Source of the DNA: Mytilus trossulus
Taxonomy: Eukaryota
DNA: 64,000 bases
Direction: 5' to 3'
Assembly (NCBI RefSeq): GCF_036588685.1
Contig: NC_086378.1
Coordinates: 84,878,001-84,942,000 of the forward strand
Part shown: piece by piece, positions 22,210 to 64,000 of the stretch
How positions within the stretch are numbered: position 1 is the first letter of the stretch
How the letters are laid out: every line of letters begins with the position of its first letter
Notes under the pieces: generated by a model
Told to the model about the DNA's origin: nothing
The model's input: only the letters and a program-made list of their open reading frames with translations
Database searches by the model: none
Made by a program: the position numbers and the translations under genes

Positions 22210-22426
22210 ATGACATCAATTTCACCAGAGGAAGAAAATTTTGTCAGAATGAACTTGTTGTTAACAGGAATTTCTCCTCGAGCAGTACGAACACTATTTG
22301 ATAATGAATTTGCTCCAATTTGTCTTGATTCTACACTAAAGAAAAAGTTCAACAAACTGAAAGATCTTCAAAAGAAGCGTGTAATTAACCAGTCGCAGTG
22401 GAATTTACTTACTCCGAGATTTCCTG
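22210..22426 (+). CDS. Exon 1 of HEPN-STAND-ankyrin gene (N-terminal half of DZIP3-like HEPN domain)
   Basis: MTSISPEEENFVRMNLLLTGISPRAVRTLFDNEF...INQSQWNLLTPRFP; phase-1 donor G|GTAAGT at 22427. Confidence 0.85.
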
Positions 22427-23470
22427 GTAAGTACAGAGAAACTTGAGAAAGCCAATAACAGTGGCAGCAACTTACCCATAAATTTCCTCCTGGTAAGTAC
22501 AGCCAAACCTTCCAGATGCCAGTCAAAGTGGAACTTATTGTTCCCTCTGATGTACATATAAACAAAACAGTGAAACTTACTAAGATTTCTATGTAAGTAT
22601 GTAGAAACATGTTACATAAAAGTCATAGTGGAACTTGATGTTCAATCAATATTCTGGTTATTATCATGATACATCCATGAAACATTTTGCCAGGTTTTCT
22701 TGTAAATACAGAGTTACCTACTACATACTAGTCACAGTGCACTTTACAATTAATTAGGTTTCCTGAGATACAGATTAACCTACTACAGCCCAAAGTTACG
22801 TTGAAATCGGCGATTCCCAAAATTTTCCGTTAAGTATAGGAACATTTGATACCAACCATGAATAGTGGATCTCTCTTGCCATAACATTCAACGGAACACA
22901 CTGTTCCCTAGATAGCCTGTTGAGTACATAGAAATAAGTTATATGTCAGTTTTCGTGCCATGTACTTATGTATTGATTTTCTTGTAAGTACCTAGAAACC
23001 TGCTATATGCCATTTACACTAGAACTGACTGCTTCCTAGATTTCTTATTGAGTAAAATAAAAACTGTCACAAATCAATTGCAGGGAAACTTATAAACCCC
23101 TAGATTTCCTGGTAGGTATAAGGAAGCCTTGTACATAACTGTGTGAGAGTGAAATTTGCTGTTTTATAGATTTCCCGTGAACAAAGTCTACTACATGTCA
23201 GTCACAGTGATAGTTACTGTTTACAGGCTTCCCTAATAAATACTGAGAAACTTTCTACACGTCCAAAAGCCTCATCATAGATACATGAATTGAAATTTCA
23301 CTGATGAGTCTTTTGTTGACGAAAAGTCATCTGCCGCAAATACAAAATTGCAATCCTGGTATCTATTAGGGAATTCTCTTGGTAGGTAAAGCCTGTTGTA
23401 GTGAAACTAACAGTTCCTAAATTTTCTGTAGAGTACAAATAAACCAGCTTCTTGTCAGTCACATTGAAGA
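22389..23470 (+). repeat. Degenerate ~63-bp minisatellite derived from the exon-1 3' end and splice donor
   Basis: About 15 diverged copies of CCAGTCNCAGTGGAACTTACT...AGATTTCCTGGTAAGTACAGAGAAAC. Confidence 0.7.
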
Positions 23471-23518
23471 CGCATCATATTCCTCTATCAGGTCAACATA
23501 TGCTGATCTGCTGGTCAG

Positions 23519-23832
23519 ACAGTTGGAAAGAACTACATAAGCTTTACCATGTGTTTTTTTCATCACGGTGGTGACGATGGTGGTCCCTCAATCGGCGACA
23601 TTCCGATCAGCTGTCCTACTTTTTTTATCTCGCTTTCTACGGAAAATGCATTGGGTTTTTTCATGAGTTTAGTTATATAATGCTACAAAAGATCCAGAAT
23701 CTGCTTCTAAGTCGGTCGATATCGCATCCACTCCTGAATGATCTTAGATGAAAAAAGCAACAAACAGTTTGATAAACGGCCTTTTATTGCAAGCTTACAC
23801 ATGGTTAAGCTTATGTAGTTCTTTCCAATTGT
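23519..23832. mobile_element. ~310-bp MITE
   Basis: TIRs CAGTTGGAAAGAACTACATAAGCTTTACCATGTG / CACATGGTTAAGCTTATGTAGTTCTTTCCAATTG. Confidence 0.7.
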
Positions 23833-24156
23833 GCTTTACTTAATAAGTATAGGCCAAAATCTTCGTTGTACCCCTATGTTCTATTTTTAGTCATGACGGC
23901 CAGCTTGGTTGATGGGCCAATTCGTCGTACTCATTTTCTATACTAGATACCCCAATGATGATTGTGACTAAGTTTGGTTAACTTTGCTCAGTAGTTTCAG
24001 AGGAGAAGATTTTTTTAAAGTTAACGGACGACGACATCGTTTTATTGTGCCATGATACATGTTTGTACATCTTTTTTCATATTTTTCCCTAGATTATGTC
24101 TGTTTGTGTTGTTCACACATCGTTGTCAATATAATGGAATTCAAAGCGACTGACAT

Positions 24157-26326
24157 CACTACAAAAGTCTAACAGTCTGAAAAGACCAATTTTTGTCTTG
24201 ATTTGCATGAATTTTACTCGATATTCTCCAAGAGTATGAATTGTGTCTTAATTTTTCTTCACAAATTCTCATTTATATTAAATTTGTATGAAATTTACTC
24301 GACATGTTCTGACATTCTGAGTATGGTCTTAAAATTTCTTGACAAATTCTTGACATTTGAATACTGTCTTGAAACTCGACATATTCTCATCATTCTAATT
24401 TTTTCTCAGTGTGGCTTGACATGTTCTGAACATTTTGAATTGTTTCTTAAATTTACTTGACAATTCTGAATTTTAAAAATCATGTCCAATATTCAAGATA
24501 TAACTTCAATCTGTATTTCTCCTTATATGATGTACTGTAGTTTCAAGTTACACTTGTTACAACAAAAATAGAAGGTGGGCATGTAAAATAATTGGGTATA
24601 TAAATATTTTTACAAATACAGATATGGCTATGAAATATAAAGTTTTAACAATACAAATGTGGGTATGTTGATATAAAACAATTTAAATGTAGTTTTTTAA
24701 ATAATTACAAATACATAAAATATTGATCCCTAAATCTTATAAATAATTACTAAATGATTAAAACCAATCATACTGTAGACATGATATTTCATTCTACATT
24801 CATAATATTCAATGTAAATAATTATTGAACCAAAATGTGGTTTTTATAAACAGCAAAGTTAATAATGGTGGTATCCTAATTCTTCCAAGGATTTGTATAG
24901 TCTTACTATACAAATCCTTGATTTAACAGAAGAAAATGTGTGTAATGTCATCTGTTGGAATATATATTGAGTATTACACGTGGACAGGATGTTTTCCATA
25001 AAATTAAGGTATTCCACACCAAGAATACACGCAAGTATCATATGGAAAATTACTGCTTGACCTGTAATCAGCCACACAACAATCAGTTGACCTACAATGC
25101 CAATACAATTTATAAAGTTAGTTGATAGATGAAAATAAAAATCATCATTTTAATTAAAAAAAAGATGAATTAAAATGGATTTTCTTCATAAAAATTATGA
25201 AGTTAATTATTTTAACATAAAAACAAATAATTTCCCAAAGATTAAAAGAAAACTATTATCTACTCCAGGAATAATATAAAAATGAAGTTTGTATAATGAG
25301 TCCTTTTTCTATAGAAATCATTGGTCTTATGAAATGGATCTCAAACAGACATGCATAATATAGATCTAAATAGTTTTAACTTTACAGGAGGGAGTGATCA
25401 CAAATATTTATTTTTCGATAAAAATTTATGAAATTCAACACACAATTTTGAAAACAAATTGTTTTTTGTTGTTTTAAATTTTTTTTTTTTTTTAATTAAC
25501 ATTGGAACAAATCTTTGACCTAAACGAAAGCCCCCTCCCCTTTTTTTGACATACAAACTCAAAAGATAAATTGTGGGGTCCAAAGGAGAAACATGGTCAC
25601 ATTTTAAAACTGCCTCAAGTCACCTGTTTTAGTAAAGCAAATTAAACTGGCAGTTTTGCGAACGGCAAAAATCTAAATGCTGTTTGTCAGTAACTTTTTT
25701 TACATATATATTCCAAGTGAAAACAATTAATTAAACGTTTAATAAAAATAAATCAAAATTAAAATACATTGGGGTTATTCAGGGTATTCCAACTCTGTTG
25801 CACCAAAAGGGTATCTTACTATACAAAATTAATCCTGGATTCTTCAAAGTTTAGTTTAGCCATAATAACAGCAATAGAAAGTCATAAACAGTGCAGAATG
25901 AGTCTGTACACATTTCAGGCGAAATTTATACTGTTCATATAGTGTCAAGGCATATTTAAGACTTCAAGAACGTGTCGAGATATATTCAGACAGCTTTAAG
26001 ACTGTCAAGTATGTGTCAAGACATATTCAGACATTATTAAGAATGCCAAGAATATGTCAAGACTTATCGAGACAAATTTAAGACAGTCATGAATTGTTCG
26101 AGACTAATCAAGACTCTTATCAGATGATACAGGAAGTGTCCAGAAATTTTAAGACAATGTTCATACTGTCAAGACACATGTTAAGAAAAATCAAGAACCT
26201 TATTAGACAAATTCATACTCTGTTAAGAATTTTTTTTTAAATTTCAGACAAATAAAGAATGTCGAGTAAAATTGATGCAAATTCAGACAAAAACTGGTCT
26301 TTTCAGACTTTTTGACTTTTGTAGTG
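24157..26326. mobile_element. Non-autonomous CACTA (EnSpm/CMC) DNA transposon
   Basis: Termini CACTACAAAAGTC...GACTTTTGTAGTG; ~70-bp imperfect TIRs; 3-bp TSD CAT (24154-24156, 26327-26329); short subterminal repeats; splits an older dispersed repeat. Confidence 0.85.
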
Positions 26327-27665
26327 CATATAAGTGAGAGGTTTAACAAGCTATACCCCAGGTTAAATCTACCATTTAGATTTTCTAATTATAAAAATGC
26401 CTGTACCAAGTCAGGAATATGATAAGTGTTTTCCATTCGTTAAAAGTGTTTGAGATTTTGGTTTTGTCATTTAGTTATAGAATTTCCGTTTAAAACTTTT
26501 CTCGGAGTACAGTTTTTATGTGATTTTACTTTTTCTTCAAAATTATTTTAGAAATAGATAATCTGTAAAAAGCAATTATGTACAACAAAGTAAGCTCTAC
26601 AAATAAATCAATATTACTAAAATGGTCAATTGGAGATTATATTCCTATATAGTCATTTTTTATAAATTCTTTTAATCTTCTCCCTTGAACATACTAGGCC
26701 AAATAGAATCAAACTTTGCCACAAATATCAATGAGCTATCTTATGTCAAAATTGTGTAGGGTGATACCGCCAACCGACCAAAATGACAGACTTGGATTAA
26801 AATAAAACGAAGGGTGAAATGCAGTTTAAGGTTTATATCTCTAAACTAAAGCATGTCGAGCAAATCTGACAATTAGTACAAAATTTCTTCAAGTGAAGTT
26901 TTATGTGCCCTGATATTTTTAGACAAATCAGACGATCTGTTGTTGGGTTGCTGTCCCTGAATTGGTAATTTTAAGTAAATTTTGATAACTTTACCAACAT
27001 TGTCAATTGACCTTCCAGTTATGTCCTTTATAGTCAATTTTTTACATTTTTTTTATAAAGTTTGGTAATCTTTATAAAAGTATTCTATAGGAGTTATTGG
27101 CCAATAACTGATAAATTTTACCACTTTTTTTTCGATTTTTTGCTTAATATCTTGAAACTTATAATCGATAGAGAGAAACTTTAAATTGCAAAAATGATTT
27201 GAAGGACAATTGCTACAAATATGTTTTATGAATGAAATCATCACTTGACCCCTTATTAAAGTTTTTCCCTTTGATGCCGATTTGTACCATTGGTTTGCTT
27301 TTTTGTCTTATATCTTCAAACTTATTATAGATAAATAGAAGCTTAAATTAACTAAAATGATTTTATCGCGTACTTGGCAATTGCTCGGTAAGTGCTATCC
27401 TATTGTTTGCTATAATCACATTTGCTTAATATGTCTCCGCACCTGTGTGTCATTGTTTGTATGCATTAGCTCCATATGCTTCCGCCTGAAAATATAATTA
27501 AAACTGGGTAATTGAGTGCAGTCGCTTGTTTAATACAGCGAGGCTTTTTTTTAATTCTAGTTCAATTACTTCCTTGAAGAATTCAACCCACTTCTGTCTC
27601 ATTGCATCTGTCATTGGATCATCCCAAACCTCGTTTCCTTGATTGATCTTGCAAATTGATCTTCA

Positions 27666-28279
27666 GAGCATACGATACAGTTAAAAGGAGGTAATGACGT
27701 TGCTAACGTAAATAGTTTTTTTTCGCGAAGTCAAACTATGACTTATCGGGAAAAGATTCAGTTTGCAACTGATTTTTATAATTCAAACTTATCTTACTTG
27801 AAAACGAGTGCATGGACCCCTCTTTTTTAAAATGCTATTTTGCTTGATTACGTAAGAAGATTATGTGTGCCAATTTTCATGAAAACGTAAAAAGTGCATT
27901 TTTTTTTAATTTGATAAATATACAGGAAAAAATGACGTTTTTTGTTTTCTACATTCGTGAAAATTTGATAAACATGAGTAATTTGAAAAACAAATTGTAC
28001 AAATTTTAAGGACATTTATATAAAACAGAATTTACAAATAATTTAACAAAAAACAGCTTGTGTTTATCTTTGAAAACAAAAAAGTAATGTATTTCTGTCG
28101 AAAGTAAAAATACGTCCAAAAATCTGAATTTTGAGCAAATATATAAAATTTGAACCTCATTTTACTCCAAAAGTAGCACATGAAGGTATTTTTTTTTTAT
28201 ATACTTGATTTATTCAGGCAAAAAATAGCATATATGCAAATTGTCAGCAAAATGTAAATCAAAACTGTATCGTATGCCC
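27666..28279. mobile_element. Non-autonomous TIR element with probable TTAA target (Kolobok/piggyBac-like)
   Basis: GAGCATACGATACAGTT ... AACTGTATCGTATGCCC|TTAA; the left TSD is degenerate (TTCA). Confidence 0.55.
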
Positions 28280-28599
28280 TTAAGGTGGATAGGATGTCTT
28301 CATTAATTAATATTTGATGTCACCGAACTTGGTTTTTTGCTACATATCAAAATAGGCAAATTCGCAACAACACTCGCACCACATCTTCCTATATCTATTT
28401 TTTTCTGAATTACCTGTCCTACTATCTGAGTTATCTCCCCTTATGTGGCAGAGTTTGGGGAAAAAAGAAATCAAACAAACATATTGCGTTTTTTTTTTTA
28501 AATACAACCGTAAATAAGATAAAACAAATAATTTAAGTAGGCATATGAAAAGTCTTACTCATGAATTACACAGTACTCTCGAAATTTGCGAATTTATCT

Positions 28600-29011
28600 A
28601 AAAGATCTTGACCAATTGATATCTGTTACTTCAAAATCCAAGAAGAAGGAAAACAACCGAACCATCTTAAATGTGGTTTTGCAATTAATACACATGGAGT
28701 TGCTAATCATTAAGTATAATAAATTCTCGCAATTTGACTTAGAGCAATTCTTGTGGTGAGCATTAACTTTATGTCATAACGAGTTTGTTGTAAAATTTGT
28801 CCGTATGCATACATTGACGCCTACCTGAAAATTGTATCTTTGATTGAAAGATAAATGTATTGCACCTCGGCTGCTACAACATTCCTCAAACCTTTTCCTT
28901 TGGTTCAATTAATTATTTAATTCCTTCCATTGATCACCGGGCCAAGCAACACTCCAATGTGTAATGGCAAATTCATTCTTTTCCAGTCATCTTTCAGTAT
29001 CTTCCAATACC
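28600..29011 (-). mobile_element. Decayed BEL/Pao LTR-retrotransposon RT relic, 3' part
   Basis: Minus strand reads VLEDTER*LEKNEFAITHW and LTTRIALSQIARIY..LATPCVLIAK (Pao TKRxxLSxIAxxYDPLG-like); continues the 41468-41830 fragment. Confidence 0.6.
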
Positions 29012-29180
29012 TTTTTTTTTTTTTTAACAACAAATAAATATTCTTTATTCATCAAATTGCTTGTTACAACTTTACTTCATTGTCCAAGCTTCAATAAAGT
29101 ATCCCTGTGAATTACTTTCTGGGTATCCAGGAAAATACACAGAATATAATAAAATATAAACATTATTTTGTTTCCATCAA

Positions 29181-32100
29181 TTATATCAATCTTTTTAACT
29201 TTATGAAAAATACATTTTGAGATATTGTTTTGTTCTCATTCATAAACCTTCGTAGTTCCTTTATAAACATAGCATACACAACTAAAAATTTCAGTTTTTG
29301 CTCTGACACATAGTACGACTTGTAAATACAAAAACCTAAAATTGTCAAGAAATAATTTAAACCGTTATATCTTTGATCTGATATTTTGTATCCAAATACT
29401 ATATGTTTTGCCAATATCTTGTTTTGAAAATTCATTTTTGCTAGAAGAAAATGAACTTTCTCACAAAAATCTTTCAAAAATAAACATGTAATAAAAAAAT
29501 GCAAATAATCTTCTTCTTTTGTTTTACAAAAGTTGCATTTATCGTTCTCAGATATTTTCCACTTTAATGGTAGCTGCTTTGTAGGAATAATATATTGAAG
29601 CAGTTTCCATCTGAAAATTTTTAACTTATTTTCCTTTAAAATTTTTAATATAAAATCATATACAAATGGCATCTGTGGTACGTATTCTAATTTTAAATAT
29701 CTTGTCCAAATGTTGATACCGATTGGCTTTGTATATTTTTTATCTACTAAAGTTTTATAGAGTAATTTATTATTGATATTTTTTGTTTCAATTTGTTTAT
29801 TTTGCCATCTTAATTTAACCTTACATATATTGATTTTACTCTTAACGGAGTTTTCTTTTTTTAAAACTTGCATCCATTCTTTTGGGATGCAGGATTTTAA
29901 CATCTTAAACTCTGCAATCCAGTTTGTTTTTTTAATTAACTTTTCTAAGATAAAACTTTCGGATAAATTTACTTTACTATCCAACATGTCGTTTATATAA
30001 ACCAATCCACTTTTAACCCAATTCGGGAAAAACAAGCATTTGTTGCGATATTTAATATATTTATTTCCCCAAATAATCTGTTTTCTAATATTAGAAAAGT
30101 GATTAGAAAATGTTGATAAACCTCCTCCTGTTTTAACCCAACTTGAAATTACTTGTAAATAAAAGTCGGGTATTTTTCCAAGTCCATCTATTGATTTAAT
30201 ATTATCTAAATTCATGTTAAAAACAAGAAAGTTTTTACCAAGATTGTTAAAATATTTAGTAGGAATAATCTCCCAATTCGACATATTGGTTGTTGTTAAT
30301 TTTGAGACCCATGAGGCTTTCAGTGCTGTAAAATAACTGTCAAAATCGATCATTCTTAACCCCCCTTTTTGGTATTCGCCAATAAGTGTGTTTCTTTTTA
30401 CTTTGTCATTTTTTCCTTCCCAAATGTATTTGAAACAGCATCTTTCAATTTCTTTCAAGTAAATCTCTGGAACTTTACACGAAGTAGCCAAAAATGTAAA
30501 TTTTGGTAATATTGAAGATTTTATGATCAATATTTTCCCAACCATTGTTAATTTTCTTTTTTCCCATGTTTTAATTAATGATTTCATGTTATCTATTTTA
30601 GGTTTCCAATTTAACTTTTCACAAGTTTATCGTGACCAAAATAAATACCTAAAGCTTTGACGGGTTTGTCGGTCCAGCGTATGCCTTCAATCTTATCTAC
30701 GCTGTTTTTAAGCGCCCCAATCCAAATTCCCTCTGTTTTATTACGATTTAGCTTTTACCCTGAGAAAGAGCCAAATGTTTCAATTATATTCATAGCTTTA
30801 GATATATCTGATTTTGAACTACAAAACAGAGTTGTATCATCAGCTAGTTGTGATATTTTAATGCTATGTGTTTTATTATCTATAGTAACACGAAAACCTT
30901 TAATGTCTGAGGTTTGCCTCAATCGCTCGGCCATAATTTCGACTGATAAAACAAAAAGTAAAGCCGATCAAGGACATCCTTGACGGATTCCTCTAGAGTT
31001 TTCAAAAATTTCGGATACCCATCCATTATTTATTACACACGTCTGTATTCCCTTATATAATGTTTCCACCCATGATATGAATGATTCATTAAAACCAAAA
31101 TGCTTTAGAACACTTAACATAAATTCCCATTCCAAAGAATCAAAAGCTTTTGTAAAATCAACAAATATTATAGCCCCATCTATTCCGTTTGATTCTGCAT
31201 AGTCCATTATATCTTGGATTTGCCGTAAATTAAATCCAATAAAACGATTTTTTACATATCCGGTTTGATCTTCATTAATTAATTTAGGAAGAAGTTTTTT
31301 TAGTCTCTGTGCTAAAACATGAGATAGTATTTTCAAATCTACATTTAATAATGATATTGGACGATAATTGTCTAAAGATAATGGATCATTTTTCTTGAAT
31401 AATAAAGAAAGAACACCTGTTCGTTGTGTATATGAAAGAAGTTTTTTCTCATGTCCCTTATTTAGAACTTTTACCAACATTGTTTTTAATTTTTCCCAGA
31501 ATGTCTTATAAAATTCTAATGTTAAACCATCTAGACCAGGTGATTTATTTAGCTTCATCGTGTTAATAGCTTTAGTACATTCATCTATAGTAACCTCCCT
31601 ATCACAAATTTTAAAGTCATTTACATTTATCTCCCTTTCCATAATAGTATCACCTACATATGTATGCAGTAGATCTTTATCTGGAGCCGTGGTTGTATAT
31701 AATATTTTATAATAGTTTTTAATCATTTCTAAAATTTGTTCTTGATTTGTTGTTACCTCGTTATTTTCATTTCTGAGTTTGTTAATAGATTTTTTGACTT
31801 GTCGCTGTTTTTCTAATCCCAGAAAATAAGAATTATTCTTTTCCCCTAGTTCTATCCATTTCTCCCTTGATCTAATTTGAGCCCCCTTTGCTTTATATTC
31901 ATAAATTGTGTCTAATTGTAATTCTAATTGTTTTATATTATTTGTTAGTGTTTCATCTTCTTTTAATTGTTTATCTCTGATTGTCATTAAGTGTTCTAAT
32001 TCGCTTTCTAATTTTCTTGTTGTCTCCCTTGATAACTTCGATTTTCTTTTACAGAATAGAATAGATTCGTCTCTAATTTCAATTTTTAGATTGTCCCATA

Positions 32101-32967
32101 AAAGACGGATATCGCTACTGTCATTATTGATTATACGATTTTCGAACTGATTTATTACTCTGTTGATTGTGTTTTTATATTCAATATCCTTTAAGATAGA
32201 ATTATTTAGTTTCCAGTATCCATTCCCTCTTTCTGAAGCCCCTGTCTTAAAGTTTAAAACTATCCCTTGATGGTCAGTCACTTTAATCAGTGCCGGTTTA
32301 ATTTTACAATATTCAACGAGAGACTGAAATTCTTTTGCAATTAAAATTAAATCTATCCTACTAGCTCGTGTTTTATCCTTTCTTCTCCATGTAAACTGTT
32401 GTGTGCTTTTATGTAAAATAAGCCAAATATCTATAAAATTATGATTTTTCAAAAGAACTTTTAAATTATTAACAGGCTCTGAAAATTTCGTATTTTTATT
32501 TAAGCTTTTCCTATCTAAAGTCTTCAATGCTTCATTGAAATCACCGGCAACTAGAGTAATGCCTATAGAATTTTCTTTTATAAAATTGTTTACTTTTTTA
32601 AAGAAAGAATTTCTATCGGTTCTATAATTTGGCGCGTAAAGACAAACTATAGACAATATTACATTGTCCATTTTCACATTTAATAAAATAAGTCTTCCGT
32701 CATTATCGCAGAATTTATTAATAACCTCAATGTCTGCATGCTTGTTTATACCTATTGCTACCCCCTACTTGCCGTAGTTCCATGACTGCAGTGAAAAATA
32801 AAATCAGTTTCTTTTTCTAGACTAGCCCTTGTTTCTTCATTTAGATGTGTTTCTTGTAAAAGTGCAATGGAACACTTATTACGTTTAACCCAATCTATGA
32901 CTCTTAATCCTTTTTCTTTATTTTGTATACCATTAACATTAAGTGTACATAAATTAATATTTGTCAT
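29181..32967 (-). pseudogene. L1/Tx1 ORF2 (APE endonuclease, RT, C-terminal Cys/His motif), frameshifted
   Basis: TLNVNG, LQETH, GDFN, SRID, TDH (APE); KSPGLDG, YRPISLLN, DFTKAFD, GIRQGCP, QLADDT (RT); CNFC...HFFITC. Frameshifts near 32760, 30965 and 30630. Confidence 0.9.
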
Positions 32968-34011
32968 TATAATGATTAGTTAAAAGGTAATTTAATTTCG
33001 TTGACTTATCTTTACGATCTATTCTAACATTAAAGTAGATAGTTTAGATAGTTTATTCTCATAAAACCATGCAAGTACAAAGGTTACAGAGAAGTTGAAA
33101 AATAATATACATAAAAAAAACAAAGTATGCATTTAAAATGCATAAAATTCAAAAATTTTCGGATGAGATAACATATTAAAGAATATATATATAGATTTTG
33201 ATAGTCAAGTGTAATAGTTAAAATTGTATAAAGAAATACTTCCTATAATTTAGGTATGGTATATAAATTATGGTTGTTAAGAAGGAGTGAGCTTACTATT
33301 AATACATCTTATAAAATTGCTGAGATTTCTAAGTGTCTTTGGTTTTTTTGAATTAAACAGTTTGTTGAATGCAATAGTGTTATGTCTTGGTATTAGTTCA
33401 TTTGGAATAAATCTTCTTCTTTCATCTTGTAAAGCCGGGCAAACAAAAATATAGTGGTATTCGTCTCCGATATCACTTTTCGTACATATTGAACATTTTC
33501 TATCGCTTCTATCGATGTTATACCATCTCCCCTTTTCTATTGGCAGTGAATGATTCGATGTTCGGAATTTACAAAGTGTATATATATCTCGGTCATTTAT
33601 GATGTTGAAATAGTTCTCAAATTCAAAATGTTCCTTAAAGAGCCTATAAGTAATGCATTTTGATGTGCTCTGGATAGCTGAATTCCAACTTTGTTTAAAC
33701 TGGTCAATTAATCTAAGTTTGATACTTTTTGGTAACCATTTGGTGAGGTCTGTATTTTGCACATAAAATAAATTTGAAAATCCGGCATTGTCCAATATAT
33801 TTTTTATGTTCTTTATCCATAAAATATCATCATTGTTTGTGTGATATCGGGAATATACAAATTTATATAAGATTGATGATAACTTATTTTCATCTATAAG
33901 CAGCCTGCACCAATATGTTATCATTCGACATTTAATGCTTATTTCCAATGGGTATAGTCCAGTTTCACCGTACACAATCATGCTTGGGGTAGATCTCTTG
34001 AGGTGTACATT

Positions 34012-37000
34012 CAGTACTTGCAACCTTAGGCGTTACTGTTTGACGTGAACTTGACTGATCGGTGAATGATCGGTGACGGATGTTTGACTGATCGATGACT
34101 GATCGGTGATCGGTGACCCATAGGATCCGTCAGATAAGTCAAATAACCTATGTGGGAGTTACCGTGACAACGGTCATCGATCAATCAGTAAATCAAATTT
34201 ATGCACGGATCGGACGGATACGTATATATTTCAAATTCTTATGTAAACCGAACTCAACAGTGTTTACTATCCATGAACGCGGACCTCGACGAAGACACCA
34301 TAATTTACACGTTAATTTGGTTGCAATAAAAAATTAAAAAATAGTATAACAGTTATATTAGATGCTTAATTAAAGCGTTAAATTGTTTCTGTTGATTAAT
34401 AGTTTTGTATTACATATTGTAAACATTAGAAACATATATAATACATAATATGTCTCAGTTAACATGAACTTCTACTTACGAAAATGCCGATGATCCGCCA
34501 TTGAAGTTTTGAACTTTTTATAGTTTAGAAAAGGTCGCTTTTCATAAAATTAAAAGAATGTCAGTTAAATCATATTTAAATATCATCCGCATTGTTTAAA
34601 ACTACCAAAACAAAACTATTTATTTAAAAATGACACTGTTTCATTTGAAATCAGTTATTTTCACTAACTCGAGATAAATACTCTCATTAGAATTGAGATA
34701 TAAAAAGAATTAAAATACTTAAACTATTATTTTGTGGAATAAGAATGCAGTTATTTAATATTTTGATAAAAATTATCAACCGCAATATGATTTCAGTACT
34801 TTTTGTTCATCAGGATTGGTTGTTCTTCATAAATTATGTTTACTTTAGGGAAAAAAATATTTGATTTATGTACGCGTTGCGTAAAATGCTAAATTTTCTT
34901 CTCATGTTTGAAAATATTGTAACTTCAATTTCAAACTGTTGCTATAAATTCCTTTTATTGACAAATTTTGTATAAAATTTGAATATTGGAAGAAGAAGTA
35001 TCTTTTTACTTTTAATTTTGTTGAACCAGAATGCGATCATTTCTTCATTTGAATGGAAATAATTGACCACAATTTGATTTTTTCACTGTATATAGTTTAA
35101 AATTAATGGTTTGTTTATAAAGTTTAAAGAATGTCAGTGAAATCATACAAAATTTATTCGCATTGTTTAGAATATCCAAAATTGTTTTTCTTTTTATTGA
35201 TTATGCCTAATTTAAGGAAAAAAATATTTAATTTTTGTACGCGTTGCCTAAAATGCAAATATTTCTTCATTTTACTAAAAATTATTGACCGTCATTGGAT
35301 TTTTGTACTTTTTATAGATTAGAATAGGTTTTTTTCATGAAATTAAAAGAGTGTCAAAGAAATCATACCAAAAATTTTATTCGCATTGTTTAAAATAACC
35401 AAAATTAGTCTTCTATTTATTAAAAATGATGCTATTTTAATTGAATTCAGTCATTTTTACCATTTTGAGACAAGTCATCTCATCAGAATTAAGATATACT
35501 GAGAATTTAAATACTTTAACTTTTATTTTTGTTGAATGAGAATGCAGTTATTGATTTATTTTGATACAATTTATTAACCATCACATGATTTCAGTTCTTT
35601 TTGTACATTTAGATTAGCTGTTCTTCATAAAATATGCTTACTTTCAGGAAAAAGATATTTAATTTTTGTATGCATTGCCTAAAATGCAAATATTTCTTCA
35701 TTTTACTAAAAATTATTGACCGCCATTGGATTTTTTGTACTTTTTATAGATTAGAATAGTTTTTTTCATGAAATTACAAGAGTGTTAGAGAAATCATACT
35801 AAAATTTTATTCGCATTGTTAAAAATAACCAAAATTAGTCTTCTTTTTATTAGAAATGATGCTATTATATTTGAAATCAGTTATTTCTACCATCTTGAGA
35901 CAAGTCTTCAAATCAGAATTTAGATATAATGAGAATTAAAATACTTAAACTTTTATTTTTGTGGAATAAGAATGCAGTTATTGATTTATTTTGATACACA
36001 TTATTAACCGTCATATCATTTCAGTACTATTTGTACATCTGAATTAGCTGTTTTTCATAAAATATGCATACGTTAAGGAAAAAAATATTTAATTTTTGTA
36101 TGCGTTGCCTAAAATGCAAATATTTCTTCATTTTACTAAAAAATATTGACCGCCTCTGGATTTTTGTACTTTTTATAGATTAGAATAGGTTTTATTTCAT
36201 GAATTTAAAAGAGTGTCAGAGAAATCATACTAAAATTTTATTCGCATTGTTAAAAATAACCAAAATTAGTCTTCTTTTTATTAGAAATGATGCTATTATA
36301 TTTGAAATCAGTTATTTCTACCATCTTGAGACAAGTCTTCAAATCAGAATTTAGATATAATGAGAATTAAAATACTTAAACTTTTATTTTTGGTGGAATA
36401 AGAATGCAGTTATTGATTTATTTTGATACAAATTATTAACCGTCATATGATTTGAGTACTTTTTGAACATCAAGATTGGCTGTTCTTTATAAAATATGCT
36501 TACTTTAAGGAAAAAGATAATTAATTTTTGTACGCGTTGCCTAAAATGCAAATATTTCTTCATTTTTATTGACCACCATTGGATTTTTGTACTATTTATA
36601 GATAAGAAAAGCTTTTTTTAATGAAATTAAGAGTGTCAGATAAATCTTACTTACATTTTATTTCGTGTTGTTTAAAATATCCAAAATTAGTCTTCTTTTT
36701 ATTAAAATTTTATAGGCTTCGATTGTGACAGGAATATTTATAGAAAGTCCTTGATTATGATAAGTTTTTTTTAATGAATTTTATGATGATAACAAGGATT
36801 TATATAGCTATGCAAATCCTTGTTCTTACTATACAAATCGTTGCTTTTCCCGAGTATGTTTGGAAAATAAAAAAATAAAAATCGCGATGTAGACAGCGTT
36901 TTAAAACCCGCCGTGTTTGAAAATAAATAACCTAAATAAAACAAAAATACCATTCTTTAATAATAATATTTATGTTAGGTTTTATCTGTACATTTCTTTT

Positions 37001-43822: not shown

Positions 43823-43824
<2 letters not shown>

Positions 43825-44636: not shown

Positions 44637-44639
44637 AAA

Positions 44640-47996: not shown

Positions 47997-48193
47997 AGCT
48001 CATCTATACTTTGGAATAAACTACCAAATGTAATAAAATGTTGTGAAAACCTGGACACTTTTAAACAAAAATGTGTTGATTTCTTGACTATAAATGATTT
48101 ATAACAACTAACTCAAATATTCTAATGATTTGTATGTTATATATAATGTCTAAAAATAGCAACAATCATCATTCAATCTATCTGAGCGTGGAT

Positions 48194-50026: not shown

Positions 50027-50091
50027 CATATGAACATCAGGCACAATCCTTCCCGTTAGGGGTTTAGTATCATACCATCATAACATATATG
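50027..50091 (-). promoter_or_regulatory. Type II SECIS element
   Basis: 5'-CAUAUAUGUU AUGAU GGUAUGAUACU AAA C CCC UAAC GGG A AGGAUUGUGCC UGAU GUUC AUAUG-3'. AUGA, 12 nt, AA, 25 nt, GA; UGAU/UGAU quartet; 11-position helix II with 10 pairs; apical mini-stem; helix I CAUAU/AUAUG. Confidence 0.85.
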
Positions 50092-50142
50092 AGAAGAACA
50101 TAACCCGTGTCATGCCAACAACTGTTTTTAGAATAAATGTCT

Positions 50143-53019
50143 TTAGTTCCGACGCAAAGACCTTATCATTGACTCAATATTAACGCCAAAATATGCAATC
50201 TTTAATGACTTGACAACAGTATCGTAATTATATCCCTTCTTAATCAGTCTATTTAAAGGTTTTGTAAGTTTCTGAGGTGAATACTGACATCTTTGTGCTT
50301 TATAAAGAATATTTCCATAAAAAATTGGATGTGAAATACCCGAACGTATAAAAAGTCTGCATGTTGAGCTATATTTACGAATGATGTCTTTATACCGATG
50401 ATAAAATTTAGTAAACGTTTTGACTAGTTTGTGATATCGAAAACCCTGGTGTAATAATTTTTCAGTAATACATAAATTTCTCTCGTTAAAATCTAAAACA
50501 TTGTTACAAACACGAGCGAATCGTACAAGTTGAGATATATAAACACCGTAAGATGGTGACAAGGGAACGTCACCATCTAAAAACGGATAATTAACGATAG
50601 GAAATGAAAAATCATCCCTTTTATCATAAATTTTAGTATTCAGCTTTCCGTTAGTGATATAGATATCAAGATCGAGGAAAGGGCAGTGGTCATTATTAGT
50701 ATTAGCTTTATTTAAAGTAAGTTCAGCAGGATAAATTTCATTAATATACATACTGAAGTCGTCATTATTGAGAGCCAAAATATCATCCAAATATCTAAAA
50801 GTATTATTAAATTTGTTTATCAGATGTTGTTTTGATGGGTCTTTGCTTATTTTTGTCATAAATTGTAACTCATAACAATACAAAAAGAGGTCCGCAATAA
50901 GTGGTGCACAGTTAGTCCCCATTGGAATTCCGATAATCTGACGATATACGGAATCCCCAAAGCGAACAAAAATGTTATCTAGTAAAAATTCAAGGGCATA
51001 TATAGTATCAAAGCAGGTCCAATTAAGTTTTTTTGTTTATTGCAACTAAAAAATGAACTAAAAGAGTTTGAACATATATATTCACATTCTGATTTTTTTT
51101 GAATGCCCATTTAATTAGGTGTGTGAATTTTTTTCTTAATGAGAATGTGAGGCAATGTGGTATACAGGGTAGAAAAATCAAAACTTTGAACAGATTCAAA
51201 ATCACCAATATGAGCATGCAATCTATCAAGTACTTCCAACGAGTTCTTGACACTCCAAAAGTAATTTATTCCCCTATTTTCGAAGGCCATATTTGAACAA
51301 TTTATTATAAGGTTTTTAATTGTACCAAGTGTGCTGGTAAGAAGAAGAGACAATTTAGTAGTTGAACAATGGCTTGAAGACGAAATAAATCTATATTTGT
51401 AAGGGGTTTTGTGTAGCTTCGGAAGCCAATACATAGTTGGGACTTTCATTGTATTTGGCTCTGATTGTAAAGCGGTGGCTAAAAGTTTATGTTTGTTACA
51501 GATTTCGTTTTCTAAAAATGGAGTCAGTTGGAATGTTGGTGAATTGGTGATTTCCCTTTTCAGAACCTCAATGTAAAATTTTACGTCAAACAATAGTAAT
51601 ATTATTAGCAGCTTTATCGGCCGGGACAAAAACAAATTCCTTGGCTAGTTCTTTTAGTTTATGTTTGATACGAGAAATAGGTTTATTGTGGTTATTGTTA
51701 ATAGTAAAATGCTCTTTAAAATGTTGAATACGTATATCAACTATCTTCATTACTGAATTAAAAAAAGAGTCCAAAGATTTTTTGTCAGCTTTTTCCCGTT
51801 TTATCCATTTCATACAGTAAGTATGGAGTGAGTCGTGGATGATATTACGACACTCATTCCAATTAATAATTGACGGGGGACGATATTTAGGTCCTTTACT
51901 GGGGAATGATTTTAACTCTCGGTCTTGAACGTTGTTAAGATCTCCTGTTATAACATGGGAAATGGGTCCATAAATATATGCGGAATTACTGCAATTACAC
52001 GACGTAGGTGTATTTTCACTGATATTAACATCTTTACACAATTGACTATAATTAAACACAAATTTCCGGGTAGATTTCTTGTAAATATAACAAATAAGAG
52101 GTAGCTCAGTATTGTCAAAATAACCAGGAATTTGTTCTTTAACAGAATGGTCGTTAAATATACCGGCAATATTTACAAAATCAAAGCCTTTATTGACATA
52201 CTTAATTTTAATAAAATGTTTTTTATGATCTTCAGGGCGATCAATTTTGGGAAATAATTTAGAATAACAATATGCCATAATAATTTGAACAATTTCATAC
52301 TTAGGACTGCTATATGAAATTGTGTTGCAATCCTCCAAAATTTTATTTAACTTATTAACCGGTAACGAACAGAGTTTTGTTAACAGATAATGTCTGCCGT
52401 TGTTTTTTGAAATAGAAATTAGGTCCGAAATATTGGTATGATTGGCCCGAAATTTTCTTTGATTGCGATTTGTTCTACGAACAGTTTTAGAAACTATATC
52501 CAAAATGTTAACGGAATTGGTTCTAGATATATTACCAATTCCCATGATATTATCATTTAGACCGAGAGGGTAAACTGTCTGTAATTTTTTAATCCAATTT
52601 AATTCAATTATTTTCCGTGATCGTACAAACTTTGAATGCGATTCACCAGGCTGCTTATTTACTACTTCTAAAGGTTGAACTGCTAAATATTTAAACGGAT
52701 GGTTGTGCTTCTTAAGGTGTTGGTAAATGATATTTTTGAATTTATTTGGTCTTTTAAAACGATACAGATGTTCTTGAGTGCGTTTAGATAAATATCGCCC
52801 AGTTTCTCCTACGTACTGAATACCACACCCCGGTTTGTTTCATGTGAGTAAATAAATAATACTGTTTGTTTTTCAAGTTATATCAGTTTCGAAATTTAAA
52901 GAAAATGTGCGACCATTAAACGTGGACCTTACCGTATTGTTGGTGGAAAGACGGGGACATGTAAGTCATTTTTTGGCATGACACTTATCGATAGAAGGGT
53001 AACCACGATTTTTATTGTT
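50143..53019 (-). pseudogene. GIY-YIG-RT polyprotein with four in-frame UGA (putative Sec) codons; interrupted by short indels
   Basis: CHAKK-U-LTC, DIT-U-KTNSIIYLLT-U-NKPGCGIQYVGET...KRTQEH...ELNWIKKLQTVYPLGLND, in frame with ORF 51586-52545; DKAANNITIV-U-RK; YWLPKLHK, SFDFSTLYT, MGTNCAP, YLDD; TAA at 50143. Confidence 0.85.
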
Positions 53020-53272
53020 AAAAATGTTATATACACATTACTACCTAACTGAAAGACTACAAGTGTCCGGTGTCAAAGTAATATATCAAGCTCTATTTCA
53101 TGAAAAGACTATAATTGATATGAATAAATCGGATCATCACAATCAAAAATCGGCCATCAATACAAAATGTGTCGTTATAACAGAAACACACATTTATATA
53201 CTTGTAACACAAAACACAGCCACTGGTCATGTACTGGACAACCTCTTCACCTTATTCTCATTATTGTTCCAG

Positions 53273-53502
53273 ATGTTCCAGATTCTAAGAAGTTTGATGT
53301 TACTTTGATGATATTACTACTTAGACATCTGACGTCATTGACCCCTCCTAATGGTGGATATGACAGACTGCCTTTATCATCAGAAACTACACCTGCTGCT
53401 GACCTCGCCAGAATCAAGTTTTATAGAAACGTCATGGCTCATCTAGATGATGGTAAAATAGACAGTACAGAGTTCTCTGCAGCATGGGATGATGTTACTG
53501 GT
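53273..53502 (+). CDS. Exon 2 of HEPN-STAND-ankyrin gene (HEPN catalytic half)
   Basis: Acceptor TTGTTCCAG (53271-53272), phase 1; DVPDSKKFDVTLMILLLRHL...ADLARIKFYRNVMAH (RxxxxH)...WDDVTG; donor GTAAGC at 53503. Confidence 0.9.
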
Positions 53503-58543: not shown

Positions 58544-58733
58544 GCCATATATAGATTAGGTGGGCAGAATATGAAGCAGGAGTGTGATTATGCGAGAACA
58601 AAATCGTTAGACCGAAGTTACCAAGAGATACTGTTAGAGATCAAGCATTCAAATGAAGCGATACGGGAATTGAATAATTCAGTTGAGTGTTTGCAAAAGT
58701 CAAGTAAAGATACAGTTCCCTGGAATATTAGAG
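58544..58733 (+). CDS. Exon 3 of HEPN-STAND-ankyrin gene (end of HEPN and coiled-coil linker)
   Basis: Acceptor TTTGTAG, phase 0; AIYRLGGQNMKQECD...EAIRELNNSVECLQKSSKDTVPWNIR; phase-1 donor G|GTAAAT at 58734. Confidence 0.85.
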
Positions 58734-60619: not shown

Positions 60620-61417
60620 TTAGCTCACCTGGCCCAAAGGGCCAAGTGAGCTTTTCTCATCACTTGGCGTCCGTCGTCCGTCGTCGTCCGTCGTCGACGT
60701 CCGTCGTCGTTAGCTTTTACAAAAATCTTCTCCTCTGAAACTACTGGGCCAAATTATACCAAACTTAGCCACAATCATTATTGGGGTATCTAGTTTAAAA
60801 AATTTGTGGGGTGACCTGGCCAACCAACCAAGATGGCTTACACAGCTAAAAATAGAACATAGGGGTAAAATGCAGTTTTTGGCTCATAACTCAAAAACTA
60901 AAGCATTTAGAGCAAATCTGACGTGGGATAAATTGTTTATCAGGTCAAGATCTATCTGCCCTTAAATTTTCAGATTGATCGGACAACCCGTTGTTAAGTT
61001 GCTGCCCCTGAATTGGTAATTTTAAGGAATTTTTGCCGTTTTTTGTTATTATTTTGAATATTATTATAGATAGAGATAAACTGTAAACAGCAATAATTTA
61101 CAGCAAAGTAAGACCTTGAAATAAGTCAACATGACCAAAATGGTCAATTGACCCCTAAGGAGTTATTGTCCTTAATAGTCAATTTTTAACAATTTTCATA
61201 AAATATGAAATTTTTACTAACATTTTCCACTGAAACTACTGGGCCAAGTTCATTATAGATAGGGATAATTGAAAGCAGCAAGAATGTTCAGTAAAGTAAG
61301 ATGTACAAACACATCACCATCATCAAAACACTATTTTGTCATGAATCCATCTGCGTCCTTTGTTTAATATTCACATAGACCAAGGTAAGCGACACAGGCT
61401 CTTTAGAGCCTCTAGTT
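60620..61417 (+). mobile_element. HINE-like (Helentron-associated) non-autonomous element
   Basis: 5' TTAGCTCACCTGGCCCAAAGGGCCAAGTGAGCT stem-loop, CGTC microsatellite, 3' GGTAAGCGACAC-AGGCTCTTTAGAGCCT-CTAGTT. Confidence 0.7.
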
Positions 61418-62279
61418 CATATTTAGTGGTATAAAATCATTAACGTGCATTTCATATACATTAAACTCACAGGTGGCGCTCGAATCAAAACAGTTAAGGT
61501 CAAAATGTATACGAAGTTAAAGAGCATTAAAAAAGGAAAATTACAGAAAGTTGTGCCAAACGTGGATTAAGGATGTATACCTCTGAGCTTGGGTTTAAAT
61601 ATCGGTAGGAAAATAACTTTCACTTAAAATTAAGTGGACCAATCTGATAGCATTTAACATAACAAATTGACCAATGAAATAAACAGGATTGGTTAAAAAA
61701 ATTGAAAATTTTGTTACTCAAAAATTACTTATTGCAAGTTCTTTATTTGTTCACAGAGATTCGTTTGATTATTATAGTAGTTTTTACTGTAATTTATATT
61801 TTCCACTTGTATCCCGGCCCATGTTTTGGAAATAATTTGATTACAAGATTTCATCAGAAACATCAGAGGAATACATCCTTTATTTATCTGATCTTGTATG
61901 CGGACAAACATAAGTGTTTGGCATAGTTATATATCATATAAACAGGAAATTACACAACATGAGTAATAATATTTTATGTCAATACAGAAATGTTGACTAC
62001 TAATTTGATAAGTCTCATGAGAGTTTCATCTACATGTCGTTTTTATATAGATTAGGCCGTTGGTGTCCTAATTGGATTGTTTTACACCAGTCATTTTATA
62101 GCTTGCTGTTCGGTGTGAGCCAGGGCTCCTTGTTGAACGCCGTACTTTGACCTCTAATTGTTTATTTTAACACATGGTGACTTGAATGGTGAGATGTCTC
62201 ATGCCACTTCTAATTTCTATTTAAAGCTCCACAGATGATGGAAATTAAATGTCTCAGGTGGGTTTTTTTTATATTTCAG

Positions 62280-64000
62280 CCCAAATAAAACAGATTATTG
62301 AAGACTGGAAGCAAAATGATCGGATGTTTATAAGCACCAGAGCTGCAAAGCATGTACTAAAATGTATAATGACGAACAGTTGTGTAACAATTACTGCTAG
62401 CTCTGGTGTAGGGAAAACAGCCACTCTTCGACATGTAGCTTTAAAGATGTCCAATGAGGGATATGATGTTTTGCTTATAACAGATCCCGGTGACATTGTC
62501 AAATTTTACAATCCAAACCAGAAAACATTATTTGTTATTGATGATTTGTGTGGAAACTATTCTTTAAACCATACTGACATAAAAATTTGGGAACCTTTCA
62601 TAGAACGGTTAAAAGTGATACTTCAAAAACAAGCTGCAAAAGTTATTGCTGCATGCCGTTTACAGCTGTACCAAGATTATAAGTTTGAATCGTTATCCAT
62701 TTTCAAGTCCTGTGTGTGTAACCTTTTATCAGAAAAAATGAGTTTGTCAAAAACTGAAAAACACATGATAGCTGAGTTATATCTTAAAAGTGAAGCTCCT
62801 AAAATTTCTGAATTTTATGATCTATATGATTGTTTTCCACTAATATGCAAACTATATCATGATAAACCTAATTTGAATATTACACATTTTTTCCAAAACC
62901 CATTTTCAGTTTATGAAGCAGAGATTGAGATACTACAAAAGAAAGGATGTTTTGCAAAGTACGGGGCTTTGGCCATATGCATTATGTTTAACAACAGATT
63001 GCAGGATAGATTTCTGACAGAAGACGTGGATATCAAAACAAGAATTATTTTTGAGAACACTTGTGAGGCATGTCGATTAGAAAGAGGAACATCAAGACTA
63101 CTTCTAAAAGATGAACTTGATTCACTCATAGACACATTCATAAAGAAAGAAGGAAATGAATACAAAATTATTCATGATAAAGTATTTGACTTTCTTACCT
63201 TTCATTTTGGACATAAAATAATGCAATGCTTAATTAAGAATGCTGACAGTGGTTTGATTATGGAAAGATTTTTATTAGAAAGACAGAATGATATGGATCA
63301 GTTTATTATAATTGTGCCTCCCAAATATCATCAAATGTACATAGAAAGAATGATAGAGGATTGGTCAAAGGGTATAGTGAATGATGTATTCTGTAATATT
63401 AATATGACAATTCCAGCCTTTCGACATTTTTTTCTTTCTCAATTGGATCAACTTAATACATCCTATCAGAGACAATTAGCACACATTAATGATTTACATA
63501 ACAATAATAATGCGCTATTGATGTCTTGTTTTTATGGTGATATTCCAATCATTAATTGGTGTTTAAAATATTGTGTTGATATTAATCAACATGGTAATAA
63601 TAATTCAACACCATTGCTTGAGGCTGCTGGTGAAGGACACACAGAAATAGTTACAATGTTATTAGAAAGAGAAACAGATGTTAATAAAAGAGACAAAGAC
63701 GGATGGTCACCACTAATGAGTGCTTGTGAAAAAGGACACACTGAAATATCAAATATTTTGTTAGAGAAAGGAGCAGATGTCAATAGATGTGACAATTATG
63801 ATTGGTCTTCTGTAATGTTTGCTTGTTACAATGGACATACAGAAATAGTTAAGATGTTGCTAGACAAAGGAGCATATTGTGATGAATGCAACAACGCTGG
63901 TTGGTCACCTCTAATGTGTGCATGTTACAACGGATATGCTAAAATAGTAAAAATGTTGTTGGACAAAGGGGTAGATTATAATACTTGTTCAATAGATGGT
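62280..64000 (+). CDS. Exon 4 (runs off the window): nSTAND3-type P-loop NTPase, helical region and first ankyrin repeats
   Basis: Acceptor TTTCAG (62278-62279), phase 1; AQIKQIIEDWK...ASSGVGKT...LFVIDD; no stop found through the window end, which is why it is absent from the ORF track; co-linear with 8063 onward. Confidence 0.9.

Follow-up and report, generated by a model that had tools for sequence, protein, structure and literature searches.

Pearl oyster and corals encode HEPN_DZIP3-NACHT(-LRR/TPR/WD40) proteins, for which the idea of an 'RNase-armed NLR' has been published, and with which the mussel family treated here has in common a HEPN head with an Rx4-6H motif, a tripartite design, lineage-specific expansion and a proposed antiviral RNase role (PMC9646362, PMC8260672 and PMC3710099). 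The HEPN domain of one family member, P0017, matches cnidarian HEPN-NACHT clusters with TM 0.83-0.86. The switch and sensor differ, being nSTAND3 and ankyrin in the mussel family, whereas the pearl oyster and coral proteins use NACHT; the word ankyrin is absent from the pearl-oyster paper (PMC9646362). Bacterial Avs5 and Mrr-nSTAND3 proteins belong to the same Pfam STAND family and share the layout of enzyme head, STAND and repeat tail, with a Sir2 or Mrr DNase effector in place of HEPN and, in Avs5, a TPR/Sel1/PPR sensor in place of ankyrins (bioRxiv 10.1101/2025.07.08.663546; Spirosoma WP_232563758.1). Walker motifs are required for immunity in Avs5, likewise an nSTAND3 protein (bioRxiv 2025.07.08.663546). 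When predicted structures of bacterial nSTAND3 proteins are compared with the mussel STAND part, the highest TM is 0.77, across 378 residues; one bacterial match reaches 25.5% identity (E 2e-10), identities overall being only 22-30%. The nearest non-mollusc look-alikes of the STAND part in the Atlas are bacterial, often nuclease-fused NTPases, although these taxa are no proof of transfer. Avs denotes a prokaryotic anti-phage protein that senses proteins of the phage, and the mussel gene is a spliced animal gene, so that the likeness concerns only how the protein would work. An animal NLR in the strict sense has NACHT and C-terminal LRRs, where the mussel protein has nSTAND3 and ankyrins; in the broad, NLR-like sense, effector, STAND and superstructure-forming repeats are all found in the single protein. 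Vertebrate RNase L combines an ankyrin sensor with an RNase of the HEPN superfamily that is activated by dimerisation. This likeness is an analogy only, since RNase L has a pseudokinase, the reverse domain order, a KEN-type HEPN (KEN/HEPN row in Table 1 of PMC3710099) and a nucleotide ligand.

The window analysed here, a stretch of 64,000 nucleotides from Mytilus trossulus, contains the four coding exons of one gene of the mussel family, the last of them in part (Table 1). The gene belongs to a large HEPN-nSTAND3-ankyrin family of bivalves, and we read its product, with a probability of roughly 0.55, as an NLR-like intracellular immune receptor, the ankyrins being the predicted sensor and HEPN the predicted RNase. 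The same domains, order and motifs occur in Mytilus and oyster gene models with PF18738, PF20720 and ankyrins (P0015, P0017; XP_034322543.1, XP_062575733.1, XP_062599458.1), all uncharacterised database entries; the present copy stands apart from them by the uncommon length of its array and by the transposon inserted there. Genomic paralogues share its intron positions, and identity with family gene models reaches about 70%. Among the best 120 homologues, 93 carry all three Pfam domains, in public Mytilus gene models; the oyster members surfaced only in a full HMM scan, word-index searches having returned Mytilus or unnamed proteins. With dozens of such models public, and with the functional idea in print for HEPN-NACHT proteins of bivalves and corals, the description of the receptor as 'hidden' in the sequence-only reading overstated its novelty. 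What appears new against the literature searched is the nSTAND3 switch: we found no report of its use by a bivalve HEPN-ankyrin family, and nothing on the HEPN-nSTAND3-ankyrin family in PMC7773633, PMC4346834 or an oyster single-nucleus preprint.

The value of the finding lies in the family; the single locus is one ordinary, partly damaged member of it. A 2012 transcriptome study reported NLRs and NACHT domains to be lacking in Mytilus and suggested other intracellular receptors instead (PMC3308963), and surveys that count NACHT domains would overlook this family. If the predicted function is true, the family offers a large and testable set of candidates for how farmed bivalves sense pathogens inside their cells, as well as an animal case of an Avs-like, nuclease-armed STAND. 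A more far-reaching proposal, which we put forward tentatively and with more doubt than belief, is that bivalves assembled, independently of NACHT, another NLR repertoire numbering hundreds of genes. Its switch would be an nSTAND3 acquired from bacterial Avs-type defence proteins and set with an animal HEPN RNase on one side and arrays of as many as 50 ankyrin repeats on the other; these genes might be the missing intracellular receptors of mussels and, as the RNA-cutting counterpart of nuclease-armed Avs, might kill infected cells.

Table 1. Features of the gene and its surroundings, in window positions or, where marked, in positions of locus L011
Feature	Position	Strand	Remarks
Coding exon 1	22210..22426	+	ATG start, phase-1 GT donor; N-terminal helices of DZIP3-type HEPN
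Intron 1	22427..53272	+	30,846 nt; swollen by antisense retrotransposon remnants
Exon 2	53273..53502	+	HEPN core with RxxxxH (RNVMAH at 53425-53442)
Exon 3	58544..58733	+	Final HEPN helices and linker helix (predicted coiled coil); splice sites
Exon 4, part 1	62280..63499	+	nSTAND3 STAND module: P-loop domain, helical and winged-helix parts
Exon 4, part 2	63500..64000	+	Start of ankyrin array (Pfam ankyrin matches); array goes on past window
Ankyrin array continuation	L011 2001-5657	+	Past window; about 42 repeats in total
Non-autonomous DNA transposon	L011 5658-8424		2,767 bp; CCCAG...CTGGG ends, TA on both sides
Severed repeats	L011 8425-9335		About 9 ankyrin repeats downstream of transposon
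Orphan broken exon 4 paralogue	8062..12623	+	nSTAND3 and ankyrins; same cluster, separate from gene

Every exon is preceded by AG and followed by GT, except that exon 1 begins with the ATG. The second and third introns measure 5,041 and 3,546 nt, and the phases (1, 0, 1) give a joined frame of 786 codons without a stop up to the window end, in agreement with the four-exon, single-frame model and coordinates of the sequence-only reading. Homologue P0015 aligns with this frame over 617 residues at 69.5% identity without a gap across any of the three junctions, and the joined frame is thus not due to chance. Paralogues, on which purifying selection acts, retain both the splice sites and RxxxxH: the exon 1 donor is kept in 5/5 paralogues (dN/dS 0.10-0.18), and exon 2 is flanked by AG and GT in matching phase in 9/9 (dN/dS 0.13-0.25 in the eight that are ungapped). 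Spliced RNA was observed from paralogues only, in which RNA contigs containing exon 2 are spliced at both ends; the joining of exons at this locus rests on homologues and on that paralogue RNA. No own-locus exon junction is among the 15 joints listed of a larger set (2,353 others) when one large run and three of RNA type are mapped to 52900-64000, a region where read mapping is swamped by intronic repeats. None of 14 exon 2 contigs in three RNA-type runs, and none of 37 in run X5, reaches 95% identity; for X5, presence/absence variation would be one reading, on which we do not rely because coverage holes carry no weight. Runs X1-X3 contain only 0.06-0.17 of the sampled words, too little for conclusions about habitat or tissue. 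The RNA contigs that do resemble this locus are pieces of exon 4 at a depth of about 3, for which library DNA is a possible source.

The switch module lies in exon 4, which matches nSTAND3 (PF20720) with E 1e-24 over positions 1-154 of the 155 in the model (87.4 bits, cut-off 27.2). The PF20720 profile passes its own cut-off in 7/14 control genomes too, with Atlas neighbours as a second support, and the 595 candidates that it counts in the genome (21 of them scored) for that reason give no copy number. For the portion of exon 4 inside the window, Pfam lists no NACHT or LRR family with E of 1 or less. The predicted Walker A (ASSGVGKT, from 62396) and Walker B (FVIDD, at 62531) are both present, as are the HEPN motif and the ankyrins; the Walker A was earlier called a variant and is no oddity of this copy, its sequence being the commonest form (69/120 homologues). 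Among 82 homologues, the Walker A lysine and Walker B aspartate are kept in all 82, the second acid in 76 and a sensor-1-like arginine in 81; the helical and winged-helix parts that follow the P-loop domain have the proline of a GxP-like CFPL (82) and the histidine (78) and aspartate (74) of an MHD-like motif. These motif names were assigned by position. The AlphaFold2 model of the module (pLDDT 90.5, pTM 0.83) has NLRP3, Dark, EfAvs5, Avs4 and Roq1 among its best Foldseek matches, though with low TM-scores against solved STANDs (0.2-0.44). In a VIA comparison, NLRP3 aligns over 323 residues (Z 13.1, rmsd 7.5), and the longest matches, of 260-330 residues, are STAND proteins (NLRP3, NLRP1, NLRP9, NOD2, Dark, SAMD9); with most AAA+ ATPases the match is limited to some 190 residues, yet they share Z 11-13 with the STAND proteins. 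By sequence, the PDB yields only weak P-loop matches and midasin, and the best PADLOC match is a candidate model, PDC-S73, to the P-loop part (E 3e-12). Pfam, conserved motifs and fold comparison together bear out the HEPN-STAND-repeat architecture that had been proposed.

The ankyrin repeats (Pfam E 2e-42 in exon 4) had been followed to the window end; exon 4 in fact runs 3.9 kb further, where the transposon (C6:84945658-84948424) interrupts it. The open frame (L011 249-5918) holds an array of 1,386 residues, or about 42 repeats of 33, and enters the transposon for some 86 codons before a stop. The copy as assembled here is cut off from its final nine or so repeats by a very young insertion: the transposon has a 99.9% identical twin on C7 and belongs to a family with 40 scored copies at 92-100%. 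With repeats anchored by pattern, and groove positions that we picked from DARPin design and take to apply here, predicted groove positions have a dN about twice that of other repeat positions; dN/dS in the groove is 0.65 (26 repeats, main array), 1.41 (7 repeats) and 0.93 (10 repeats of a neighbour), against 0.32-0.42 outside it. Positive selection on the groove is unsupported, as 0.65 in the main array is below 1.

Each HEPN exon has 150 or more matches in the genome. Within the cluster, the broken paralogue (Table 1) is 63% identical to exon 4, with stops at 8455, 8530, 9427 and 10966 as well as frame changes, and no homologue of exons 1-3 was found upstream of it; in a neighbouring copy, exon 1 is undetectable within 78 kb. 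The many matches, the tandem cluster with a broken copy, purifying selection on HEPN and the groove dN point, at the sequence level, to a birth-and-death pattern that is typical of immune families.

It is possible, if on balance doubtful, that the family works as described and that the allele seen here is decaying or disabled, its folding, sensing or expression perhaps abolished. The insertion would have cost it about nine repeats and added some 86 foreign residues; its first intron is rich in retroelements over 30.8 kb, its neighbours are damaged, and its exon 2 has no RNA contig from this locus. Against this, about 2,000 codons ahead of the insertion are without stop or frameshift, all motifs are intact, the repeats that are left exceed those of most homologues (712-2,011 residues long), and the insertion is young enough to be possibly confined to a single haplotype. 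The sensor of the truncated copy may be altered or dead, with head and switch intact. A disabled allele would be compatible with the best explanation at the family level.

At the head of the protein, exon 2 matches HEPN_DZIP3 (PF18738) with E 3e-22 (model 37-113; 79.3 bits, cut-off 27), so that both the DZIP3-like HEPN and the nSTAND3 suggested earlier exceed their Pfam cut-offs; exon 1 alone stays under the cut-off (E 1e-3, model 4-34), and the whole domain in homologues passes it at 128 bits. The Atlas comparison gives TM 0.90 with a PF18738 cluster. A PDB sequence search with exon 2 gave no match, and in both fold searches of a full-length homologue model against solved structures, ankyrins filled the results and masked HEPN. 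RxxxxH is kept in 69/70 full-length homologues, 9/9 genomic paralogues and 27/30 distant HEPN-bearing representatives. In those 69 homologues the R and H stay constant amid variable intervening residues, the pattern expected of catalytic residues. HEPN is a likely RNase. A dimer model of P0017 residues 1-215 scores 0.41 (best control 0.15), with at least 92% contact agreement between runs and pLDDT of at least 86. That mark is reached by 21/30 solved microbial pairs and 0/23 single chains, and in eukaryotes by 17/29 pairs (animals 7/16; 1/7 without an older solved relative) and 0/30 single chains. The interface is a parallel helix-helix pairing through the linker coiled coil (residues 174-198 in the P0017 model), in which the RxxxxH residues are not named.

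The same HEPN module occurs in mollusc Roc-COR proteins and in vertebrate DZIP3, an RNA-binding ubiquitin ligase. HEPN could bind RNA or scaffold partners without cutting, as it may do in vertebrate DZIP3, within a STAND hub for stress, self/non-self recognition or development, and the dimer interface just described would fit this as well; we found no RNase assay on a DZIP3-type HEPN in the literature, and PMC9646362 says 'putative'. We regard this as rather improbable, given the constancy of R and H amid variable residues, the Mrr nuclease head that the bacterial STAND look-alikes often bear in a parallel enzyme-effector design, and a massive copy turnover that suits conflict genes.

For the NLR-like receptor that we favour, the mechanism that we infer, with its putative RNase activity, ligand and immune role, would run as follows. 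At rest, the ankyrin solenoid would keep the STAND module shut. Once a pathogen protein (or a host protein that has been disturbed) is bound, nucleotide exchange and oligomerisation would become possible. Coiled-coil pairing of the linker helices would then unite two HEPN domains, whose composite RxxxxH site would cut RNA, with translation shutdown or death of the infected cell as the outcome.

That exon 1 is an orphan, unspliced to exon 2 over 30.8 kb, and exons 2-4 a 5'-broken gene, would fit the lack of an own-locus read joining exons 1 and 2 (reads placed on 52900-64000 and exon 2) and the upstream cluster paralogue without a detectable exon 1, but is very improbable, as the phases match, the homologue alignment is gapless, this is the sole exon 1 homologue in the 242 kb examined with exon 2 the next family exon downstream, and other nearest exon-1/exon-2 pairs genome-wide, judged by eye from match lists in which nearer unscored exons are possible, lie 27-31 kb apart (for example C3:4187532/4156256, C8:51565564/51535646). 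A search of intron 1 for a second HEPN exon found none. Its 14 stop-free frames of at least 120 residues are all on the minus strand, with none on the plus strand, which is the pattern expected of a transcribed intron, and 6/10 frames scanned contain RVT_1, zf-RVT, zf-CCHC or GIY-YIG.

The gene under study belongs to a large family, of which it is an ordinary, transposon-damaged copy. The window was placed on contig C6 of the 1.30-Gb host genome, and the anatomy that had been read from the sequence alone proved right overall: the four exons were confirmed at their coordinates, with GT-AG at all internal exon ends, phases 1, 0, 1, and one open frame of 786 stop-free codons, over the joined exons, up to the window end. 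Pfam places model positions 4-34 of HEPN_DZIP3 (PF18738) in exon 1 (E 1e-3) and positions 37-113 in exon 2 (E 3e-22); exon 4 matches both ankyrins and nSTAND3 (PF20720, E 1e-24). Genome-wide, the best 150 of 334 candidates for exon 2 and the best 150 of 263 for exon 1 were scored as matches. Among the best 120 homologous proteins, 118 are named Mytilus, which places the host mussel in or close to Mytilus, and 94 carry PF18738 together with PF20720, 93 of these with ankyrins as well (manual count). A wider profile, built from 13 STAND modules of the host genome and followed up to E 1e-10, matches 3,799 protein clusters (50% identity clustering); the 129 new proteins among its best 150 matches include 30 with a HEPN head, 106 with ankyrins and 24 with both. 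Ten matches picked for N-terminal extension comprised seven from Mytilus and three from oyster, and all three oyster proteins have all three domains.

The family shares its HEPN head with the known HEPN-armed NLR-like receptors, of which it is an nSTAND3-ankyrin variant. Earlier papers describe fusions of DZIP3-type HEPN with ankyrin, NACHT, LRR and other modules, with an oyster expansion and a proposed defence role for HEPN-NACHT proteins (PMC3710099); more than 50 HEPN-NACHT proteins in the pearl oyster, for which pathogen sensing and viral RNA degradation were proposed, with Rx4-6H in 194 of 202 HEPN proteins (PMC9646362); 17-83 HEPN-NACHT proteins per anthozoan species (PMC8260672); and oyster TRADD-N proteins that contain HEPN, STAND and ankyrin modules (PMC8195603). 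Others count nSTAND3 among the NLR ATPases (PMC13449251) and report neither NLR nor NACHT in a Mytilus transcriptome (PMC3308963). The mainly open-access literature searched yielded no account of a HEPN-nSTAND3-ankyrin family in bivalves (the architecture may be listed in the supplementary domain tables of PMC9646362 and PMC8195603), and among the listed matches to "nSTAND3" none concerned molluscs, judged by titles and opening lines of abstracts.

Beyond the anatomy, every step of the mechanism is drawn from NLR, Avs and HEPN biology. Ligand bound by the ankyrins would free the STAND switch, STAND oligomerisation would pair the linker helices, and the resulting HEPN dimers would cut RNA as an intracellular defence, an account to which we give a probability of roughly 0.55. 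The sequence-only reading, which had proposed an immune sensor coupled to RNA destruction, was a reasonable guess, unproven and largely anticipated in print.

Exon 4 extends 3.9 kb beyond the window, for about 2,090 residues in the whole protein, and its ankyrin array is interrupted by an inserted element (see table). The reading frame enters this element for about 86 codons and then meets a stop; about nine further repeats lie downstream. Possibly, if somewhat doubtfully, the gene under study is disabled and the family works as proposed, which is compatible with the RNA-cleavage mechanism. Because the element holds no frame above 120 codons, has 40 scored relatives at 92-100% identity and a full-length twin at 99.9%, it is a very young non-autonomous DNA transposon. 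We take its CCC...GGG ends and 2-bp duplications to be reminiscent of EnSpm/CACTA-like elements. The twin (L053:5075-7843, a further genomic stretch; G000:C7:6557075 onward) is flanked by TT, as against TA here, and lies upstream of another HEPN-family gene, about 1.1 kb from its exon 1, by either chance or target preference.

All but one of 70 full-length homologues retain the RxxxxH motif, as do 27 of 30 distant homologues. In the Atlas of predicted-structure clusters, the HEPN head of the homologue P0017 reaches TM 0.90 against PF18738 clusters, and this module is also carried by cnidarian NACHT-LRR proteins, Roc-COR proteins of molluscs and DZIP3 of vertebrates. Two copies of P0017 residues 1-215 were modelled with a score of 0.41 (best control 0.15), contact agreement of at least 92% and pLDDT of at least 86. 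The dimer mark is reached by 21/30 solved pairs and 0/23 single chains in a microbial benchmark, and by 17/29 and 0/30 in eukaryotes, where the animal pairs account for 7/16, with only 1/7 where there is no older relative. The modelled interface is formed chiefly by the linker helices (residues 183-208), which pair as a parallel coiled coil, and the catalytic motif is not named there; the model supports the "coiled linker" as a predicted dimeriser and stops short of a composite active site. Set beside the conserved motif, a non-catalytic HEPN that serves as a signalling hub is improbable.

Three lines argue that the exon joining is real: homologue alignments, paralogue splice sites and paralogue RNA. 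Single-piece alignments run from model residue 20 or below to 600 or above in 70 of 120 homologues, and the homologue P0015 aligns gap-free over 617 residues at 69.5% identity. Genomic paralogues keep place and phase of the exon-2 acceptor and donor (9/9) and of the exon-1 donor (5/5); dN/dS is 0.13-0.25 in exon 2 (eight ungapped paralogues) and 0.10-0.18 in exon 1. In RNA contigs of paralogues, exon 2 gives way to exon-1-like sequence at 53267-53273 and to exon-3-like sequence at 53503, whereas sequencing run X5, its kind not on record, continues from exon 2 into AT-rich intron-like sequence. The spliced RNA looked for is therefore seen at both exon-2 ends in paralogues but not at this locus's own junctions, 0 of 14 RNA-type contigs on exon 2 having at least 95% identity to it. 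On exon 4, RNA contigs of about 97% similarity are present at a depth of about 3, and could be DNA. Against the three lines, an orphan exon 1 is very unlikely indeed.

The window's own 406-residue STAND module has a confidently predicted fold (pLDDT 90.5, pTM 0.83). Among 82 homologues the Walker A K and Walker B D are invariant, and residues that we take to be the sensor-1-like R (81), GxP-like P (82) and MHD-like H (78) are conserved. The Walker A ASSGVGKT is present, but as the usual family form (69/120 homologues) rather than the variant it had been called. Foldseek places NLRP3 top, with Dark, EfAvs5, Avs4, Roq1 and also DnaA near the top (TM 0.2-0.44); in VIA fold comparison NLRP3 has Z 13.1 (rmsd 7.5, 323 aligned), and most AAA+ ATPases equal it in Z, yet cover only about 190 residues. 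The P0017 module lies nearest to mollusc nSTAND3 clusters in the Atlas, followed by bacterial ones; bacteria account for seven of ten structure matches (TM 0.53-0.77), several of them carrying an Mrr nuclease head, and none of the matches listed is a eukaryotic NACHT cluster. A plasmid search gave one bacterial match (25.5% identity, E 2e-10), an nSTAND3 protein of 778 residues that also matches Mrr weakly; a divergent paralogue gave 29 records, at 22-30% identity in the 15 listed. The switch is therefore a true STAND, of the nSTAND3 family used by Avs5, and resembles bacterial nSTAND3 more than it does animal NACHT. As its source we put forward bacterial transfer as a hypothesis. On Spirosoma plasmid NZ_CP089543.1 (L046:3452-8841) two genes come after the Mrr-nSTAND3 gene, one coding for Mrr plus an IrrE-like peptidase and one unknown; the three are possibly an undescribed defence cassette.

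The ankyrin repeats have a mean identity of 54%. Predicted groove positions vary about twice as fast as others (dN/dS 0.65 vs 0.32, 26 repeats), which would fit a binding surface, is common to many ankyrin arrays and falls short of positive selection.

Intron 1 is 30.8 kb long because it is filled with retroelement debris, nested remnants at 29181-52839 (-). Its 14 long frames are all antisense to the host gene, 6 of 10 scanned match RT, zinc-knuckle or GIY-YIG, and no further family exon was found within it. Fragments at 3426-4689 (+) and 16148-16525 look like Penelope-type RT by eye, resembling 50143-51644; the two tested gave no Pfam match at E 0.001.

Features in and around the window (window positions unless a locus is named)
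Feature	Location	Strand	Remarks
Upstream paralogue	G000:C6:84816702-84855500 (L019-L023; 22-61 kb before window)		exons 2, 3 and exon 4
Broken orphan exon 4 (nSTAND3 and ankyrins)	8062-12623	+	phase-1 acceptor intact; without HEPN exons of its own
RT/zf-RVT element, long	29181-32764	-	intron 1
Zinc-knuckle ORF	40422-41399	-	intron 1
Penelope-like RT and GIY-YIG	44964-47161	-	intron 1
Inserted element, 2,767 bp	L011 (exon 4 and downstream of window) 5658-8424		CCCAG...CTGGG ends, TA on each side; interrupts array after ~42 ankyrin repeats

The gene comes third in a tandem cluster. Exon 4 of the upstream paralogue is open for 1,864 codons, and no exon-1 homologue was found in the 78 kb before its exon 2. 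The orphan exon 4 may be a partial duplicate, or else a former alternative last exon that belonged to that upstream gene; the latter would offer a route to exchange switch and sensor on one RNase head. Elsewhere (L032-L045, on contigs C1, C5 and C8-C12), nSTAND3 paralogues with long open frames are 21-52% identical to this gene, which suggests several old subfamilies. Two Mytilus models, P0052 and P0069, join the STAND module to Roc/COR or Ig domains, either as genuine fusions or as joins made in annotation.
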